Shown: piece after piece, positions 6,001 to 12,000 of the stretch
How the letters are laid out: each line of letters begins with the position of its first letter
How positions within the stretch are numbered: the first letter of the stretch is position 1
Assembly (NCBI GenBank): GCA_041288095.1
Contig: JBGGMJ010000113.1
Span: 1-22,093, forward strand
Source: Myxococcota bacterium
GTDB taxonomy: Bacteria > Myxococcota > XYA12-FULL-58-9 > JALHOP01
Direction of reading: 5' to 3'
DNA length: 22,093 bases
Made by a program: the position numbers

Positions 6001-9000
6001 CTGATGAGGCGCAGCGTCAGCTCGGGCGTACGCTGGCGCAGCAGCGCGAAGGCGGCGCGGAGGAGCTCGAGGTTCTGGTACGGGTCGGGATTGCCGGCAT
6101 AGGCGATGCGAGCGGGCCGCGCGACACCGGGCTCCGGGCTGGGCGCGTTGGTTTGCGCCAGCTCGTCCATGGAGAGTCCCAAGGGGATGACGTGCAGGCG
6201 AGCCGCCGACACGCCGGCGTGCTTGAAGCGCGCGGCTTGCTCGCTGTCGAAGCAAATGACCGCTTTAGCGGTCTTAGGAAGGGTGCGCTCGAAGGCCGCG
6301 CCTGCGACCTTCGCGGCGCGCCGGCCGATGCCCGTGCGGGCGTACAGAGGTAGCTCGGACTCGAGCCGGGTGTGCGCGTGGTAAACGAGTGGCACCTCCA
6401 TGAGACGGGAGGCGACGGCGCCGATGCTCAAGGCCTCGACGTTGTGGACGTGCAGCAGATCGATCTCGCGCGTCGCGAGAAGCTTCAGGGTGTGACGCAG
6501 CAAGGCGGCGTCGGCGGCTAGCCGCGCGAGGCTCGGGCCACTACGGAGGCCGACGGGGGGTGTCGGCGCCCGGTGCCAGGCGACCCGAGGATCGAGCTGC
6601 GCGACGAGCGGCTCGGACTCGCCGTAGGTGACGAGGTGCACGGCATGACCAGCGACGGCGAGCGCGTTCGCCAGATGGCGAATGAACACCTGGGTCCCCT
6701 GATGCGAGGGAAACGGACAAGCGGCGATCATGGCGATGCTGCGGCGCGGACCGGAGCTCACACGCGTCGCGGCATCGAGCTCCTGGGCGCCGCGGGACGC
6801 GAGCTTCGAGTCGCTGCGGCCGGCTGGAGCACGGGTGCTCCGACTCCGGCGGGCTGCTCGATCGTGTTTGGCCGCGCTTGGAGCGGCCTCCTTCGTGTCT
6901 TTTATAGCGGACGGGCGCCGGCCCTCATCCGACCCGGAGCGACTCACGGCGCAATGGCGTCGAGCAGGCGATCGAGCTCATCCAACGAGTGGAAGAAGAT
7001 CTCGATGCGGCCCTTGCCCTGACGGTGGTGCAGGCGGATTTTGGTGGCGAGCTTGCGCTGGAGGCGCTCTTGCACGGCGACCTCGGCGGGCGACGTGGCC
7101 CCTTCGGCTGCCTTGGCGGCCGTCGGTTTCTTGGCCAGGCGGGCGCGCTGCTCGGCATCACGGACCGAGAGCTTGCGGGCCACGATTTCGTCGGCGAGCT
7201 TCTGCATCGCCTTCGGCTCGGCAAGCTGCATCAGGGCGCGCGCGTGACCGGCGGTGAGCCGACCATCGGCGAGCATGTGCAACACGGGCTCGGGCAGGTT
7301 GAGCAATCGCAAGGCGTTGGTCACGGTCGTGCGCTTCTTGCCGACCGCGGCGGCGACCTCGTCTTGGGTGAGCTGATGCTCGCGGATCAGCCGCTGGTAG
7401 GCCTCGGCCTCCTCGAGGGGATCGAGGTCCTGACGTTGCACGTTTTCGATGAGCGCGACCTGGAGCACGTCGGTATCGGCGAGCTCCTTGATGACCGCCG
7501 GGATCTCGTGCAGGCCGGCTTGCTGCGCTGCACGCCAGCGACGCTCACCGGCGACGATCTCGTAACCATCACCGAGACGGCGAACGATGATCGGCTGCAA
7601 GACGCCACGCGTCTTCACCGACTCGACGAGCTCGGCAAGCGCGTCGGCTTCGAAGTGTTTGCGCGGCTGGCTACGGTTGGGGTGCACCCTCTCGATGGGC
7701 AGCGCACGAAGACCGGCGGGCGCCGGCGTCGTCGGGGCGGCACCCGGGATCAACGCGGCAAGGCCACGCCCGAGCGCGGCGCGCTTGGGAGCGCCCGTGT
7801 CTTTGTTCTGGTCCATCATGCTGCTCCCGGCGTTCACGTCAGTCATCTCGGCTCGTCCTACGGTTTCTCGGCTATCGGTCTTCGGCTATCGGTCTTCGGC
7901 GATCGGCTCATCCGCCATCAAGCAGCGCTGTGCGCCATAGCGGACTGCTCCAACATCTCACGCGCGAGCTCGAGGTAGCTTTGGCAACCACGCGAGCCGA
8001 CGTCGTAGAGCAAGATTGGCTTGCCGAAGCTGGGCGCCTCGGACAGGCGCACGTTGCGCGGGATCACCGCCTTGAAAACCGGACCGCTGAAATTGGCGCG
8101 GACGTCTTCGGCGACCTGACGCGCGAGGTTGTTGCGCGCGTCGAACATGGTGAGGAGCACACCTTCGACGGTGAGGTTCGGATTGGGACCGGCTCGCACC
8201 ATCTCGAGGGTGCGGGTGAGCTGACTCAAACCTTCGAGCGCGTAGTACTCGGTCTGCAGCGGGATGAGCACCGAGTCAGCGGCGCACAGCGCGTTGAGGG
8301 TGAGGACGCCAAGCGACGGCGGGCAGTCGATGAGGATGATGTCGTAGTTGTCGAGGACCGGGGCGAGCGCTTCCTTGAGACGCGTGTAGCGATCGCTCTG
8401 CTGAATGAGCTCGATGTCGGCGCCGTAGAGGTCGGGGCCCGAGGCGACGAGGTGCAGGGTCGGCAGCTCGGTGGAGCGGATGAGCTGACGCACGGCGCGA
8501 GTGCCCGCTAAAGCGGCGTACACGCTGTCGTCCATCGGTTGCGGGCCGATGCCCAGACCACTGCTCGCGTTCGCTTGAGGGTCCATGTCGACGAGGAGGA
8601 TGCGACGCTCGGTGGCGGCGATCGAAGCGGCAAGGTTCACGGCGGTGGTCGTCTTGCCGACGCCGCCTTTCTGATTGGCGATTGCGATGATCTTGGCCAT
8701 GCGGGTCACCTCACGATGCACACTAGCTTGGTGATCTGACGATCTCGGGGCCGGACATAGTGCGCGGGGATCGTGCTTGGGAAGCGGGCGCGATCGTTTT
8801 TGATCGTCCGCGGAGCTGCTGGGCGCATTTGGGCGCTTGGTGCAGCGAGCGGGGCGACTGCGCCTTGCGCTCCTCACTCGTCCACGTTCGCGCGTTTTTC
8901 GCCGGCCATGGGTGACCTCGCCTGGGACCGCCCGACGAAAAGTGCGCGACCGCGGCCGAGCTCCGGTGCTCGGCTCCGTCGCCCCTCTTCGCTCACTGGC

Positions 9001-12000
9001 AATTGGGCGCAGCTGGGAATCTGATCATGATCATTTTTGATCGTCGCGCGCGGCGACTGTCACTGAGCGCTACTTCGCCCCTCCTCTCATTAAATCAGGG
9101 AGAGGGGAGGAGAGAGAGAAGAGGAGGGCCGTAGCCGGCACCGGAGCCTGTCAGCCCGAGCCCCCGCAGGCGGAGCGCGCCAGCGGAGCTCCTTACGCCC
9201 GCCGAGGACAGGCGCGGGATGACAGGCGAGGAGCGCAAGGCGAAGGCACTCCGTTCGCTCTACCGACCGCGCTCAATCACCCCACCGCCTACAAGTCCCA
9301 AATATGAAGCGCGTGCGTCTTCCCATTGAGGTCATAACGAACCACGCTGCTCGCCGAAGAGCTCACCTCATCCGCCCGGTACGCAATCAGCCGCCCCCCC
9401 GGGGTCAGCCACCGGAGGCAGCTCTTGAGGTCGCCTTCGTCGGAGAAGGTCGCACGCGTGACCACGTTGGCGAACTGTTCGGGAGGGGTGTCCTCGGAGC
9501 GCCCGATGCGGGTGCGGACGTTGCCCAGGCCGAGGCGCGTGGCGGCAACGTCGAGGAAGGTGGTTCGCTTCTGGCGGGGCTCGACGAGGAGGTAGCGACG
9601 CTCGGGGGCGACGATGGCGAGGGGGATCCCGGGGTAGCCGGCGCCGGAGCCGAGGTCAACGACGGACCCGGGCTTGAGGTGGGGGAGGCCGGCGAGGGAG
9701 TCGGCATAGTGGACCCAGGCCGCCTCGCGATCATTTTTGATCGCGGTCAAATTGACACGCTCGTTCCAGGCCAGGACCAGGCGCCAGTGCTCCTCGCAGA
9801 GACGGTACTGGTCGTCCGAAAACGCAGACTGGGTGGCTTCGCGAAGGGTCGGCTCGAACGAAGGTTTCACGTGAAACCATCTTTAGCGCCCCGACCAGGT
9901 CGGGCCAAAATGTTTCACGTGAAACATGCGTCACGTCGTTCGCCGGAACGACGGATCCCGGGCACCGATAACGCTGGGCTTGCTTCGCATCTCCACACCC
10001 GTAAGGCCTGCGTGGCCCCCCATCGGCGCCCCCCTCCAGGAGCCTACGAAGGCCCAGTGGAAAGTCCCGCTGGGCCCCCTGCAGGTCGGAGCCGCGCTGC
10101 CTCTCCTCGAAGTCCACTCGCTCACGCAGCGGGCCGCGACTGGGCTCCTGAGCAACATCGTCGAGCATCCCACCGGCCGCTACCTGAGCGCCGGCCAGCA
10201 CCAATTTCGCTCCCTGTGGAGTCGCGACTTCTGCTGGTCAGTTCCGGGGCTGCTCACCATCGATCGAGGGGATGTCGTGCGCGACCACTTGCGACTCCTC
10301 ATCAGCTCCGCCCATCCGGAAACCGGGCTGGTGCCCCGCGCTCTCGATAGCATCAACCCCAAGATGCGCGTCGTCCGCGCGACCCTCGCCTACGCCTTCG
10401 GCCTCAAGGGTGCCCAGGCCGCACCCACCAAGGACCTCGTCCCGGAGTACCACGAGCAGAACGGCCACCCCTGCATCGACGGCAACCTGCTGACGATCCT
10501 CGCGACCCTGGCCTACGTCGACGCCACTGGCGACCGCGCGTTCCTCGCCGAGCATGCACCCGCCTTGCAGCGCATCCTCCGTTTCTACGACACGCGGATT
10601 CACGACGGCCTCATCGTCCAGCCGGGCTTCTCGGACTGGCAAGACAGCGTCCGTCGCGACGGCAAGACTTTCTATACGAACCTGCTCTGGTCGGTGACCC
10701 TGACCGAGCTCGCCGAACGCGGACTCCTGGGCGTCCGTGAGCAGCAAGCCCTCGACGTCCGAACCGCCGTGCACGCCACCTTCTTCGACGAAGCCAGCGG
10801 TCTCTACCGCTCACTGGCTGAAGGGCCGCAGCTCTCCATCGACGGCAACCTCCTCGCCATCGACCTCGGCTTCCTGCGCGGCGCCCAAGCCCACTCGCTC
10901 TACGCGGCAATGAAGCGCCACCCCCTTTGGTCGGCCGCCAATGGGCTCCCCGGCGTGGTCACCATGCCCGACTATCCCTGGGAGAGCCGCAACTGGACCG
11001 TTCGCATCGTCGGTCTCGGCCACTACCATGACCGTCTCGCCTGGTCGTGGATCACGGCCATGAGCGCCAAGGTCGCCAGTCGCATGGGCGATCAACCCGA
11101 GGCCGAGCGCATCCTCGACGGACTCGATAAGCTCATCGCGCGCGACCACACCGTGGCGGAAATCTACGAACCGCAGCGTACGATGAAGCCCTGGCAACGT
11201 TGGCTGTACCACTCCGAGCGTCCCTTCTCGTGGGGCGCCGCCGCGACCCTCGACGCCGCCAGTGTCGTCGCCCGCAATCGCTCCGCCAGCGCCTAGGCTC
11301 ATCCACGGGCAATCCGCGGCCGCATCTTTGCTGGCTCGACCCGCCTCAGCTATCGTTCAAGCCGATGCCTCTCGCACGCCCAGCGGAAGCAGGTCGCGAG
11401 GTCCACAGCCTACCGCCTCGGCGTCGGCTGAGCCGACTGCTCTTGGTTGGGCTGATCGCCGTCGTCGCAGCCGACTTCTTCCTCGCTCGCTACGGCTGGG
11501 TCTACCCCCTGGTGCTCACTGCCCTCTACGTCGCGACGTTCGTCTACAGGTTCCTGGCAAGCGCCCGCCAACCGCACCTCGTGTCCATCTGCGAGAACGG
11601 CCTGGTGGTCGACAACGACGGCGTCGTGGAGTGGATCGATTGGCGCGAGCTCGCCTCGGTCGTCTTCTTCGAGACCCTGAGTGGCTCGCAGTACGACGTC
11701 AACGCCAAGGGCGTGGGCTACCGTCTGAAGCAGGGCGCCCTTGGGGAAGCGCGGCTGGAAGACATCATCGGCTTCATCATCCACCGCACCCGCTTCGAGT
11801 GGATCACCGAAACGATGGCCGCACGCCCCGAGATCCTCGAGCGCTACCGACCAACGCGCGTCGATCCCGAGTGAGCTGACGTCCTCGCGCGCTAAGGCTC
11901 TACAGCGACGGTCGCGCGGTGAGCATGCACGCGCAGCAACGCCAGCGCCGCGGGCGTCATCCCAGGGATGCGGCTCGCCTGTCCGAGCGACAACGGCTGC

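Follow-up and report, generated by a model that had tools for sequence, protein, structure and literature searches.

What are the two inverted repeats that separate rsmG from parA in an uncultured soil myxobacterium (genome G000), and do they act as RNA or as DNA? In the window, the 22,093-nucleotide stretch that we analyzed, parA (7918..8700, minus strand; PF13614, E 1e-62; PF01656, E 3.5e-30) and rsmG, also called gidB (9289..9870, minus strand; PF02527, E 1.2e-31, with an open reading frame), are 588 nt apart, and the spacer is filled by two inverted copies, E1 and E2, of a repeat that we call element E. The genome-wide survey's note had described element E as a genus-restricted, 150-nt rod-like hairpin present in six copies, and had cautioned that it might be a MITE whose hairpin acts at the DNA level. 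We suspect, with a probability of about 0.5, that element E is a non-autonomous, modular foldback repeat of the ERIC or REPIN type that moves or is copied into short spacers behind gene ends in this myxobacterial lineage.

Both copies in the window are of the long form. E1 (8842..8995, minus strand; extended hairpin ~8838-8998) matches the model R1 with 109 bits (E 6.7e-23). One of its stems, P1, is a perfect 8-bp helix (GGGGCGAC/GTCGCCCC), and its top loop has diverged, with TTTTCGTCGG...CCGGCGAAAAAC replacing CCGCAGGCGG...CCGCCGAGGACA. E2 (9113..9261, plus strand; extended hairpin ~9100-9265; R1 139.6 bits, E 2e-30) ends 27 nt from the rsmG stop codon and has every conserved loop (GCCGGCACCG, CCCGCAGGCGG, CCGCCGAGGACA and GAGGAGCGCAAGGCG). 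It is antisense to both flanking genes, is 63% identical to E1, and has relatives found by blastn on contigs C169, C79, C175 and C129 (78-81% identity).

The sequences around the two copies bear traces that may be related to insertion. A 10-nt direct repeat flanks E1 (ATTTGGGCGC, 8827..8836, and AATTGGGCGC, 9001..9010, both read from the sequence on the plus strand). Its copies agree at 9 of 10 bases by eye, and it is possibly a target-site duplication. A conserved motif ~95 nt upstream of the parA start is present in two direct copies, one on each side of E1: GATCGTTTTTGATCGTC (8792..8808, plus strand) and GATCATTTTTGATCGTC (9029..9045, plus strand), the second lying between E1 and E2. This motif is single in the short spacer of the sister genome G001 (GATCATTTTTGATCGTG) and has a variant form in G002, so that among these three genomes it is doubled only in G000. 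Directly 5' of E2 is a polypyrimidine/polypurine hairpin (CCCCTCCTCTC ... GGGAGAGGGGAGG; 9078..9110, plus strand). The copy on C79 has a similar CCCTCCTCACCTCTCC tract 5' of the element and within the inserted segment, and thus this hairpin may belong to the inserted unit. No promoter-like sites were found in the rsmG-parA spacer, and no terminator-like site was found inside E1 or E2, where the 3' flank is CGATCGCC.

Element E is more abundant and more variable than the survey's note had indicated. G000 has further long copies at C169:30017-30166, C79:39483-39633, C175:58433-58581 and C129:14772-14919 (R1, 109-150 bits). The count of six is nevertheless too low, as at least 5-6 short forms of ~90 nt share the same basal module (C57, C9, C64, C110 and C210, with a weak match at C31). 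These came to light when we scanned with a regular expression and with R1 run filter-free. The genome-wide R1 search had overlooked them, having scored only 150 of the 7911 candidates. Among the four species of the genus, the long form occurs in two (G000 and G002) and the short form in all. Restriction to the genus was too strong a claim, since one degenerate short copy (18.6 bits) is found in G019, from another family of the same order. Nor is the 150-nt element self-contained: the basal module also occurs as the 90-nt short form, and the top module is shared with distant bacteria. Copy number is low, 2-12 per genome.

The relationships among copies differ widely. The six long copies of G000 are 55-80% identical to each other, and G002 has five near-identical copies. 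Five short forms of G000 are near-identical in the center (GGTACCG to GGAAG), with flanks, including the P1 arms, that differ more. Across species, a G000 short form and the C6 copy of G001 are 95% identical over 78 nt, compared with 76-89% for the flanking genes. The flanks of these two copies are non-syntenic, and the differences between them include a compensated top-stem pair (GTG/CAC versus GGG/CCC). Degenerate copies exist at C175, at C110 and in G019, and several loci have partial tandem duplications of the 3' half of the element. Some copies belong to larger units that are themselves repeated. For example, the G002 long copies share ~200 nt of an upstream module X, forming an X-E composite, and G000 has cassettes in which short forms accompany a gene for a four-helix-bundle protein. 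The near-identical G002 copies and G000 short forms testify to recent bursts.

Each long copy folds into one long irregular hairpin, as the survey's note had stated. The basal module, which underlies every copy, comprises a weak outer stem (GCG.../...CGC), P1 with its 8 bp of free sequence, and the constant loops GNA, GCCGG(C/T)ACCG and GAGGAGCG(C/G)AAGGCG-NAG; its 3' flank is CG(A/G)TCGC. In the short form, a plain hairpin sits on top of this module. In the long form, including E1 and E2, a second module sits there instead; its tip is free, and its constant loop is CC-GCA-GGCGG / CCGCC-GA-GG-ACA. Across the alignment, conservation is highest in the loop columns. P1, in contrast, takes the form of at least 12 different helices in the 25 copies. 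Most of these helices are fully complementary, and hardly any two G000 long copies have the same P1 sequence; P1 is preceded by a conserved A-N-A-G. Folding z-scores for the sense strand of the G000 long copies range from -0.8 to -6.2 (100 dinucleotide shuffles), and thus the fold energy of the C175 copy alone is no better than chance.

The compensatory changes persist in an alignment that was not fitted to the model. This alignment was made with MAFFT from 12 long copies, the six of G000 and six of the seven G002 matches; the cut-off C186 copy was excluded. Paired cells make up 82.4%, versus 34.8-44.9% when the partners are slid, and 19 of 40 pairs have double changes, versus 8-11 when slid. 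For four of five measures, none of 500 shuffles reached the observed value. These figures are lower than the 93.7% and 24 of 37 reported before and point in the same direction. The strand, which had been left unsettled, is now settled in part. In 25 aligned copies, the strand co-oriented with the cassette gene has 30 G-U and 7 A-C cells, a ratio of cells rather than events that by our own reading corresponds to roughly 14 versus 6 independent changes. There is still no Rfam family for the element. With Rfam 15 and E-values up to 10, the best match between positions 8650 and 9350 of the window was the microRNA model mir-207 (18.9 bits versus a gathering threshold of 88, E 0.98), and at the other loci only a tRNA was matched.

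Comparison of orthologous sites confirms that element E varies in presence within the genus. In sister species whose synteny is readable, a long copy is missing from all five long-copy sites. The rsmG-parA spacer is ~135 nt and lacks element E in G001; in G002, it consists of ~315 nt that are unrelated. At C169, all three sister genomes have an empty site, with the two stop codons 2-23 nt apart. The C79 site is empty in two of the three; in the third, the flanks are 8 kb apart. At the C175 site, all three sister genomes have other sequences of 72-140 nt and no element E, in agreement with the earlier observation for G001 and G002. The C129 site is empty in G002; in G003 it has a short form whose P1 differs, and in G001 a small hairpin whose P1 arms are the same. 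Neither a clear target-site duplication nor a conserved terminal inverted repeat was found at C79 and C169, the two cleanest pairs of filled and empty sites. Alignments of filled and empty sites are ambiguous near the junctions, and E1 is the only copy with a flanking direct repeat.

The element is consistently found behind genes. All five long-copy sites are 2-30 nt past a stop codon, and three are between convergent genes. The adjoining genes share no function, and most solo copies flank ordinary housekeeping genes that all four species have conserved. At the sites with an informative orientation, the sense strand of the element runs in the same direction as the gene that precedes it. These genes are gnd at C129 and its G003 orthologue, the four-helix-bundle gene, one that stops 8 nt ahead of the C13 copy of G003, and a terminator-bearing one ahead of the C6 copy of G001. 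In the cassettes, short forms directly follow the stop codon of the gene for the 107-amino-acid four-helix-bundle protein (PF05635, E 3.5e-20; TIGR02436, E 4.9e-21), a family known from 23S rRNA intervening sequences. This gene is multi-copy and forms a deletion series from full length at C57 to progressively shorter versions at C110, C9 and C210, and the cassettes are flanked by heptamer arrays. G001 and G003 have the same cassette with a plain GC hairpin where G000 has the short form. A literature search found no title on intergenic four-helix-bundle cassettes flanked by heptamer arrays.

We favor a mobile foldback repeat on the basis of the copies and their structure, the doubly changed pairs, the insertion differences between species, the position at the 3' ends of genes, and the larger units. 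The empty orthologous sites, the modularity and the larger units also favor the caveat, already made in the survey's note, that the element may be a MITE acting as DNA. We postulate that the constant loops are recognition sites for whatever copies the element, and that the hairpin must form in a single strand, either ssDNA or RNA, of the strand reading GGCACCG...GAGGAGCGCAAGG. Only lineages that keep the hairpin would go on spreading, and young insertions would therefore show intact, compensated stems. Once inserted, element E would be transcribed within the neighboring 3' UTR, where it may serve as a stabilizing or insulating hairpin. It is not a classical intrinsic terminator, because no U-tract follows it. 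Canonical terminators with T-runs are present in the genus, beside the C129 copy and before the C6 copy of G001.

Some observations fit a mobile repeat less well. We did not find a transposase or recombinase partner. A non-exhaustive search found no IS with E-like ends, and the only protein-coding unit that shares element E is the four-helix-bundle cassette, whose protein is not a known transposase. Matches to the Y1 transposase family PF01797 (1, 1, 0 and 4 in G000 to G003) do not track the copy number of element E, and the locus of the G000 match (L031) has no element E by filter-free R1. G002 has the most long copies and no PF01797 match; this genome is only 84% complete. Because the long copies are 55-80% identical and each is at a site without a long copy in the sister species, mobility would need several diverged active lineages or very fast change. 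Copy numbers of 2-12 are also low for a successful mobile repeat, and the 95% identity between short forms of different species, with its compensated pair, would fit a functional RNA under purifying selection as well.

Indeed, the copies of element E could make up a family of structured RNAs with a function, either cis-acting within 3' UTRs or small RNAs. In this case, the loops would bind a protein, the stems would be under selection as RNA, and species would differ in copy number because RNA genes or regulatory elements had been gained and lost, not through selfish spread. In addition to the conserved short form, the constant loops with covarying stems, the one-strand excess of G-U over A-C, the placement of the sense strand after co-oriented genes, and the sharing of the top-loop motif with covarying hairpins of distant bacteria, which suggests a common binding partner, all speak for such a family. 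However, we find it doubtful given that every long-copy site lacks a long copy in sister species, E2 is antisense to both neighbors and inverted relative to E1, promoter-like and terminator-like signals are absent at this locus, degenerate copies and partial tandem duplications of the 3' half occur, and the neighboring genes have no common function. It is improbable that element E is instead an inert DNA quasi-palindrome, with apparent compensation caused by templated mutation, in which intra-strand template switching during replication copies one arm from the other, and with no selection on the fold. Templated mutation is established for imperfect inverted repeats in bacteria. It would account for perfect stems in copies only 55-80% alike and for the rapid turnover of P1, and it fits the partial tandem duplications that are frequent at the element, a sign of replication slippage. 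However, it fails to account for unpaired asymmetric loops as the best conserved columns, for the G-U excess on one strand, and for new copies at sites that are empty in sister species.

The position of short forms directly behind the stop codons of cassette genes raises another alternative, a folded recombination site resembling the attC sites of integrons. Such a site, at the 3' end of small gene cassettes like that of the four-helix-bundle protein, would be read as a single-stranded hairpin by a site-specific recombinase, and solo copies would be sites left behind or captured without a gene. As in attC, the fold is conserved while the stems vary freely in sequence, the loops and bulges do not change, and the tip can be anything between a few bases and a long stem. 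The tandem repetition of the 3' half alone and the different forms found downstream of gnd in different species would also fit. We would nonetheless be surprised if element E were such a site. The attC R''/R' cores (RYYYAAC ... GTTRRRY) are absent from its ends, which in a direct reading of 25 aligned copies are ...A-N-A-G and C-G-R-T-C-G-C (for example, ...AATAG and CGATCGC...). There were no cassette arrays in the 3-10 kb loci examined, no integrase was noticed nearby, although no search aimed at one was made, and most solo copies are beside housekeeping genes conserved in all four species.

The top loop of the long form is not confined to this lineage. The motif CCGCAGGCGG...CCGCCGAGGACA recurs in many unclassified rod hairpins from metagenomes of low-GC uncultured bacteria, and these hairpins also covary (16 pairs, 9 with double changes). 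Like element E, they (e.g., L183, L184, L191 and L170) have the exact loop CCGCAGGCGG ... CCGCCGAGGACA(A) at the base of a covarying stem, are rod-shaped with long outer stems of free sequence, lie directly behind the ends of housekeeping genes, and have no Rfam family. Unlike element E, they possess another conserved bulge (GCUUGGUC), a small third hairpin with the loop CGCNGGAG, and closing AACC/GGGTT pairs, and they lack the E basal module, with local R1 scores of at most 24 bits. We speculate that the constant loops of element E, chiefly CC-GCA-GGCGG / CCGCC-GA-GG-ACA, might be the binding module of an unnamed, widespread class of structured single strands in Myxococcota and low-GC uncultured bacteria. 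Rods behind housekeeping genes would present one loop to one conserved factor (candidates include a nuclease, a recombinase and the four-helix-bundle protein), element E would be one lineage's mosaic of two such modules, and the class, absent from Rfam, would represent a novel type of RNA or ssDNA element. We consider this unlikely. The loop shared with distant low-GC bacteria matters more than the mobile repeat, and suggests a conserved recognition module that is missing from RNA libraries.

If element E is a mobile foldback repeat, then it is one more that is specific to a lineage, and an instructive one, as its free stem inside conserved loops would show which parts the copying machinery reads. 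The tie to cassettes and heptamer arrays would provide a handle on the four-helix-bundle family, which is abundant and related to the Avd proteins of diversity-generating retroelements. To our knowledge, no function has been established for this family outside of these retroelements. Element E is also a warning for annotation: covariation alone is insufficient for naming such hairpins small-RNA genes.

Known repeats and insertions resemble element E in different respects. The 23S rRNA intervening sequences are hairpin-bounded insertions that, like the E short forms, are accompanied by a gene for a protein of the same family (Pfam 23S_rRNA_IVP, TIGR02436). However, the E cassettes are intergenic and flanked by heptamers rather than located in rRNA, and in G001 and G003 they have a plain hairpin instead of element E. 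Integron attC sites, like element E, would be recognized, if at all, as a folded single strand with conserved structure, free sequence and a variable tip behind a cassette ORF, although element E has no R-box core and forms no arrays. REP/REPIN sequences, associated with Y1 (IS200/IS605-like) RAYT transposases, are also intergenic hairpin repeats in which active lineages retain the symmetry of the arms; they have no target-site duplications, as may be true of element E. The A-N-A-G before P1 is a possible counterpart of their short, GTAG-like 5' motif. In contrast to these, element E flanks no RAYT gene, PF01797 does not track its copy number, copies are counted in tens rather than hundreds, and stems of one genome do not share a conserved sequence. 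The PF01797 counts and the lack of element E at L031 speak against membership in the REP/REPIN-RAYT group.

Element E also behaves like the ERIC/IRU sequences, 127-bp imperfect palindromes of Enterobacteria and Vibrio. Both are intergenic, usually within transcribed 3' regions, and fold into one long hairpin with imperfections. Orthologous sites may or may not contain them, internal blocks distinguish their short and long forms, and they reach low to moderate copy numbers without a known transposase. The phyla differ, the sequences are presumably dissimilar, and the likeness is in behavior only. Element E also differs from ERIC in its free-sequence 8-bp stem inside conserved flanks, its strongly conserved asymmetric loops, and the tie of part of its family to a protein-coding cassette. 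Our best reading is that element E is a foldback repeat similar to ERIC and REPIN, assembled from reusable modules, that behaves as a small mobile element rather than as a fixed small-RNA gene.

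The 588-nt spacer between parA (7918-8700, minus strand) and rsmG (9289-9870, minus strand), both assigned with Pfam, contains two inverted copies of element E, a hairpin repeat, each about 150 nt long. A covariance model of this long form (R1; built from six copies, with 148 positions and 40 pairs) places E1 at 8842-8995 on the minus strand (109 bits) and E2 at 9113-9261 on the plus strand (139.6 bits), and a repeat finder run on the window reports an inverted repeat whose arms, 8833-8882 and 9221-9270, have 76% complementarity. Each copy is predicted to fold into a single long irregular hairpin. 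E1 and E2 are only 63% identical, and thus are not the product of a recent inverted duplication. E1 is flanked by a 10-nt direct repeat (8827-8836 and 9001-9010) and by two direct copies of the motif GATC(G/A)TTTTTGATCGTC (8792-8808 and 9029-9045), and a polypyrimidine/polypurine hairpin occupies 9078-9110. The GATC-rich motif, which lies ~95 nt upstream of parA, is kept in G001, present as a variant in G002 and duplicated in G000, the genome of the window (G001-G003 are the other three species of the genus); it may be a promoter or operator element of parA. No sigma-70-like promoter or terminator-like site was found in E1 or E2, and Rfam 15 gave no family for the spacer (lowest E-value 0.98). 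The contigs of three DNA runs contained no E1 bridge or excision joint, a result that is uninformative on excision. At the far end of the window, a 59-nt direct repeat (21583-21641 and 22035-22093; 100% identical), whose second copy stops exactly at the contig end, could be either an artefact of assembly or a repeat at which the assembly broke off.

The sites of the long copies vary in occupancy among species whose flanking genes are 73-89% identical. The site in the window is ~135 nt in G001, with one GATC motif and without E, holds ~315 nt of unrelated sequence in G002, and has no syntenic match in G003. The C169 site is empty in all three sister genomes, where both stop codons are 2-23 nt apart, and the C79 site is empty in G001 and G002, its flanks being 8 kb apart in G003. 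The genome-wide survey's note had described the C175 site as lacking E in G001 and G002, and this is borne out; other sequence, 72-140 nt long, is found there, and in G003 as well. At the C129 site, G002 is empty, G003 has a short form with a different P1 (an 8-bp stem of free sequence), and G001 has a small hairpin whose arms are those of the G000 P1. Each of the five long-copy sites has a stop codon 2-30 nt away, and three of them are situated between convergent genes. The neighbors, which from our own reading of the translations we take to be PilZ-like, YqgF/MltG-like, gnd and other housekeeping genes, have no function in common. The region downstream (3') of the C129 copy, at C129:14920-15010 (L004:5121-5211), contains a small hairpin, GTCYGCTATAGCGGAC, and a bidirectional terminator of textbook form, AAAAAAAAGCGAC-CCCCCCGA-GTCGCTTTTT; both are conserved in all four species, indicating that U-tract terminators are in use in this lineage.

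E is more abundant than the six copies first counted in the G000 assembly (5.85 Mb, 66% GC, 212 contigs, the window being C113). Besides E1 and E2 there are four long copies, on C169, C79, C175 and C129 (R1, 109-150 bits), and pairwise identity among the six is 55-80%. The count of six is too low because there are also short forms of ~90 nt on C57 (48.9 bits with R1), C210 (46.3), C64 (43.7), C9 (40.8) and C110 (30), and a weak one on C31. R1 detects E in each of the genus's four genomes and in none of the other 18 of the order, with the best 150 of 7911 candidates scored in G000; because only these were scored, we added a regular-expression scan and a filter-free R1 scan of the fetched loci. 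The four genomes are the whole genus and the whole family, and the 22 are the whole order and the whole class (GTDB-style). The proposed restriction to the genus holds for R1 but not for the exact short-form pattern, which finds one degenerate short copy (18.6 bits), within a 150-nt partial tandem duplication, in G019, from another family of the order. A stricter short-form pattern, applied to one genome for each of ~185,000 species, matched 31 loci. Two are genuine, the G001 and G019 copies (Myxococcota MAG records), and by our own reading the other 29 are coding matches. A loose basal pattern, ACCGN{20,50}GAGGAGCGSAASGCG, matched 108 of 401 Myxococcota genomes, nearly always in coding sequence (an E-E-R-K-A peptide), and was too loose to be usable. 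Of the 22 genomes of the order, only G000, with 4 copies, and G002, with 6, contain the top-loop pattern; G001 and G003 thus hold only short forms.

E is built of modules. All copies, short and long, share a basal module. Its 5' side consists of a weak outer stem (GCG.../...CGC), A-N-A-G, the 8-bp P1, a G-N-A loop, GCCGG(C/T)ACCG and a stem, and its return side of GAGGAGCG(C/G)AAGGCG, N-A-G, the second P1 arm and CG(A/G)TCGC. In the short form the basal module is topped by a plain hairpin; the long form has a longer stem, a second constant loop (5' CC-GCA-GGCGG, 3' CCGCC-GA-GG-ACA) and a free tip. A kink-turn in the top loop was rejected since, in a comparison by hand with the consensus, the G-A/A-G pairs are out of place. 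P1 has at least 12 different sequences among 25 aligned copies, including GGGGCGAC, GGGTTGAT, GTGGTGAC, GGCCTCC, GCCCCTCC, GGGCTGGC and GGGTTCGC, and in most of these variants the partner arm is fully complementary. Such a stem could have belonged to an earlier host hairpin that was invaded by the core. As a general rule this is out, because conserved sequence runs on beyond P1 on both sides and a matching stem is absent from the empty sites, C169 and C79; for the C129 site alone the idea is kept alive by the G001 hairpin with the same P1 arms. The 3' half of E is partially duplicated in tandem at five loci (G001 C7:97392-97556 and downstream, G003 C68 and C13, G002 C117, and G019 L070:1425-1641), with units of ~73-150 nt in 2-3 copies, suggesting that the hairpin is prone to slippage or recombination.

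The compensatory changes described in the stems had come from an alignment fitted to the model, and they largely persist in one that was not. We aligned 12 long copies with MAFFT (six from G000 and six of the seven G002 matches, leaving out the cut-off C186 copy) and applied a structure that came from a G000-only alignment. Standard pairs filled 82.4% of cells, compared to 34.8-44.9% with partners slid, and 19 of 40 pairs were double-changed, compared to 8-11 when slid. None of 500 shuffles matched the observed value on four of the five measures, but 57 of 500 did on the fifth. The pairing figure is conservative, as MAFFT shifts the G002 copies out of register at P1 by one or two columns. A model-fitted alignment, in which 25 of 27 rows were kept (the two dropped were an antisense self-match and a cassette's 5' hairpin), has 732 Watson-Crick, 30 G-U, 7 A-C and 57 other cells. 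To judge from these sequences, the excess of G-U over A-C favors the strand that reads GGCACCG...GAGGAGCGCAAGG, although the cells are not independent and, counted as changes by our own reading, the ratio is ~14 to 6.

Both forms of E are found in larger repeated units. Five of the short forms in G000 lie 5-40 nt 3' of the stop codon of a 107-aa gene that is present in multiple copies and belongs to the 23S_rRNA_IVP/four-helix-bundle family (PF05635, E = 3.5e-20; TIGR02436, E = 4.9e-21). The gene is part of a cassette that runs from a heptamer array (GATNGCC repeats) through GC-rich hairpins, the gene, short E and GATCGGCGAA...GCCGAAGGCC to a second heptamer array. The last GC-rich hairpin before the gene sequesters a GGAGG ribosome-binding site. 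The cassette is found at C57:14224-14960 (L022:1433-2169) and also on C9, C64, C96, C110, C12, C107, C141 and C210; several copies are at contig ends, and on C110, C9 and C210 increasingly large internal parts of the gene are deleted. The arrays reach ~19 GATNGCC units and match dozens of sites across the four genomes of the genus. In each of the three sister genomes, the flanks of the C57 cassette are found on separate contigs. The cassette of G001 and G003 has two convergent four-helix-bundle genes, separated by a plain GC hairpin exactly at the position of the G000 short E. The second unit, module X, is a repeat of ~190-200 nt with at least 10 matches in G002, of which four immediately precede long E copies (C11, C47, C219 and C324), and X plus E may be a composite repeat in that genome. 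In G000, module X (C175:57543-57728; L003:4144-4329) is just 3' of a tRNA gene (C175:57465-57538), upstream of the gene located before the C175 copy of E.

Hairpins with the top-loop motif also occur more widely. The exact pattern CCGCAGGCGG, 20-50 nt, CCGCCGAGGACA matches at least 120 stretches in a metagenome collection and one in viral contigs. Most of the 80 metagenome stretches examined are coding, and 14 are, by our own reading, non-coding rod hairpins (L157, L168, L170, L183/L198, L184, L191, L195, L201/L216, L202, L205, L176 and L153, with L183/L198 and L201/L216 being duplicate pairs). Twelve of the 14 are on contigs of 45-56% GC and two on GC-rich contigs. They come from uncultured bacteria and are ~170 nt long, with a conserved three-way core, AACC-CCGCAGGCGG ... 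GCUUGGUC ... CCGCCGAGGACAAGC-hairpin-GAAGCGGGTT, and share AACC ahead of the motif, the GCUUGGUC bulge, a small third hairpin and GGGTT closing pairs. Their core stem co-varies (9 of 16 predicted pairs double-changed in 10 sequences), and their outer stems have 26-34 perfect pairs of a different sequence at each locus. In the cases checked with Pfam they occupy spacers beside housekeeping genes, namely gyrB and rplJ, rplK, groEL, and genes for a PHP-domain polymerase, an RF-1 domain protein and an S41 peptidase, the last with gcpE. Rfam gave no family for the low-GC hairpins, and no support for 6S RNA, SRP RNA, RNase P, tmRNA or self-cleaving ribozymes; with R1 they score no more than 24 bits, and only locally. 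These hairpins may be an undescribed class of RNA or of mobile hairpin.

We conclude that a non-autonomous mobile foldback repeat fits E better than a fixed RNA gene does, based on insertion polymorphism, near-identical copies that came in bursts, other copies that are degenerate or partly duplicated, the mixture of orientations (E2 is antisense to both of its neighbors) and the place of E in larger repeated units. The alternative, that E is a functional RNA, keeps real weight: the short form is 95% identical across species, with a compensated difference, and the loop motif is found across phyla. The constant asymmetric loops, compensated stems and one-sided G-U excess show, as far as alignments can, that the folded single strand of E is read by something. 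For a mobile foldback repeat, that reader would be a putative copying machinery, selection would act on element lineages, and the insertions would be young compared with their own decay. The host may also use the hairpin in 3' UTRs. A Y1 transposase was considered as the mobilizer, and had no association with E.

The survey's note had thus described a real feature, and largely correctly, yet incompletely. The interest of E lies in its modular build, its link to the cassette and a loop motif that it has in common with other hairpins. Full-text literature searches brought up no title on E, its cassette or the loop motif, and E matches no Rfam family, either in the spacer of the window or at other E loci. 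E lacks the tested features of REP-RAYT systems, of intrinsic terminators and, by direct reading of the sequence, of attC sites. In behavior it is nearest to ERIC/IRU and REPIN elements, and it belongs to a known kind of element, as a variant new to it.
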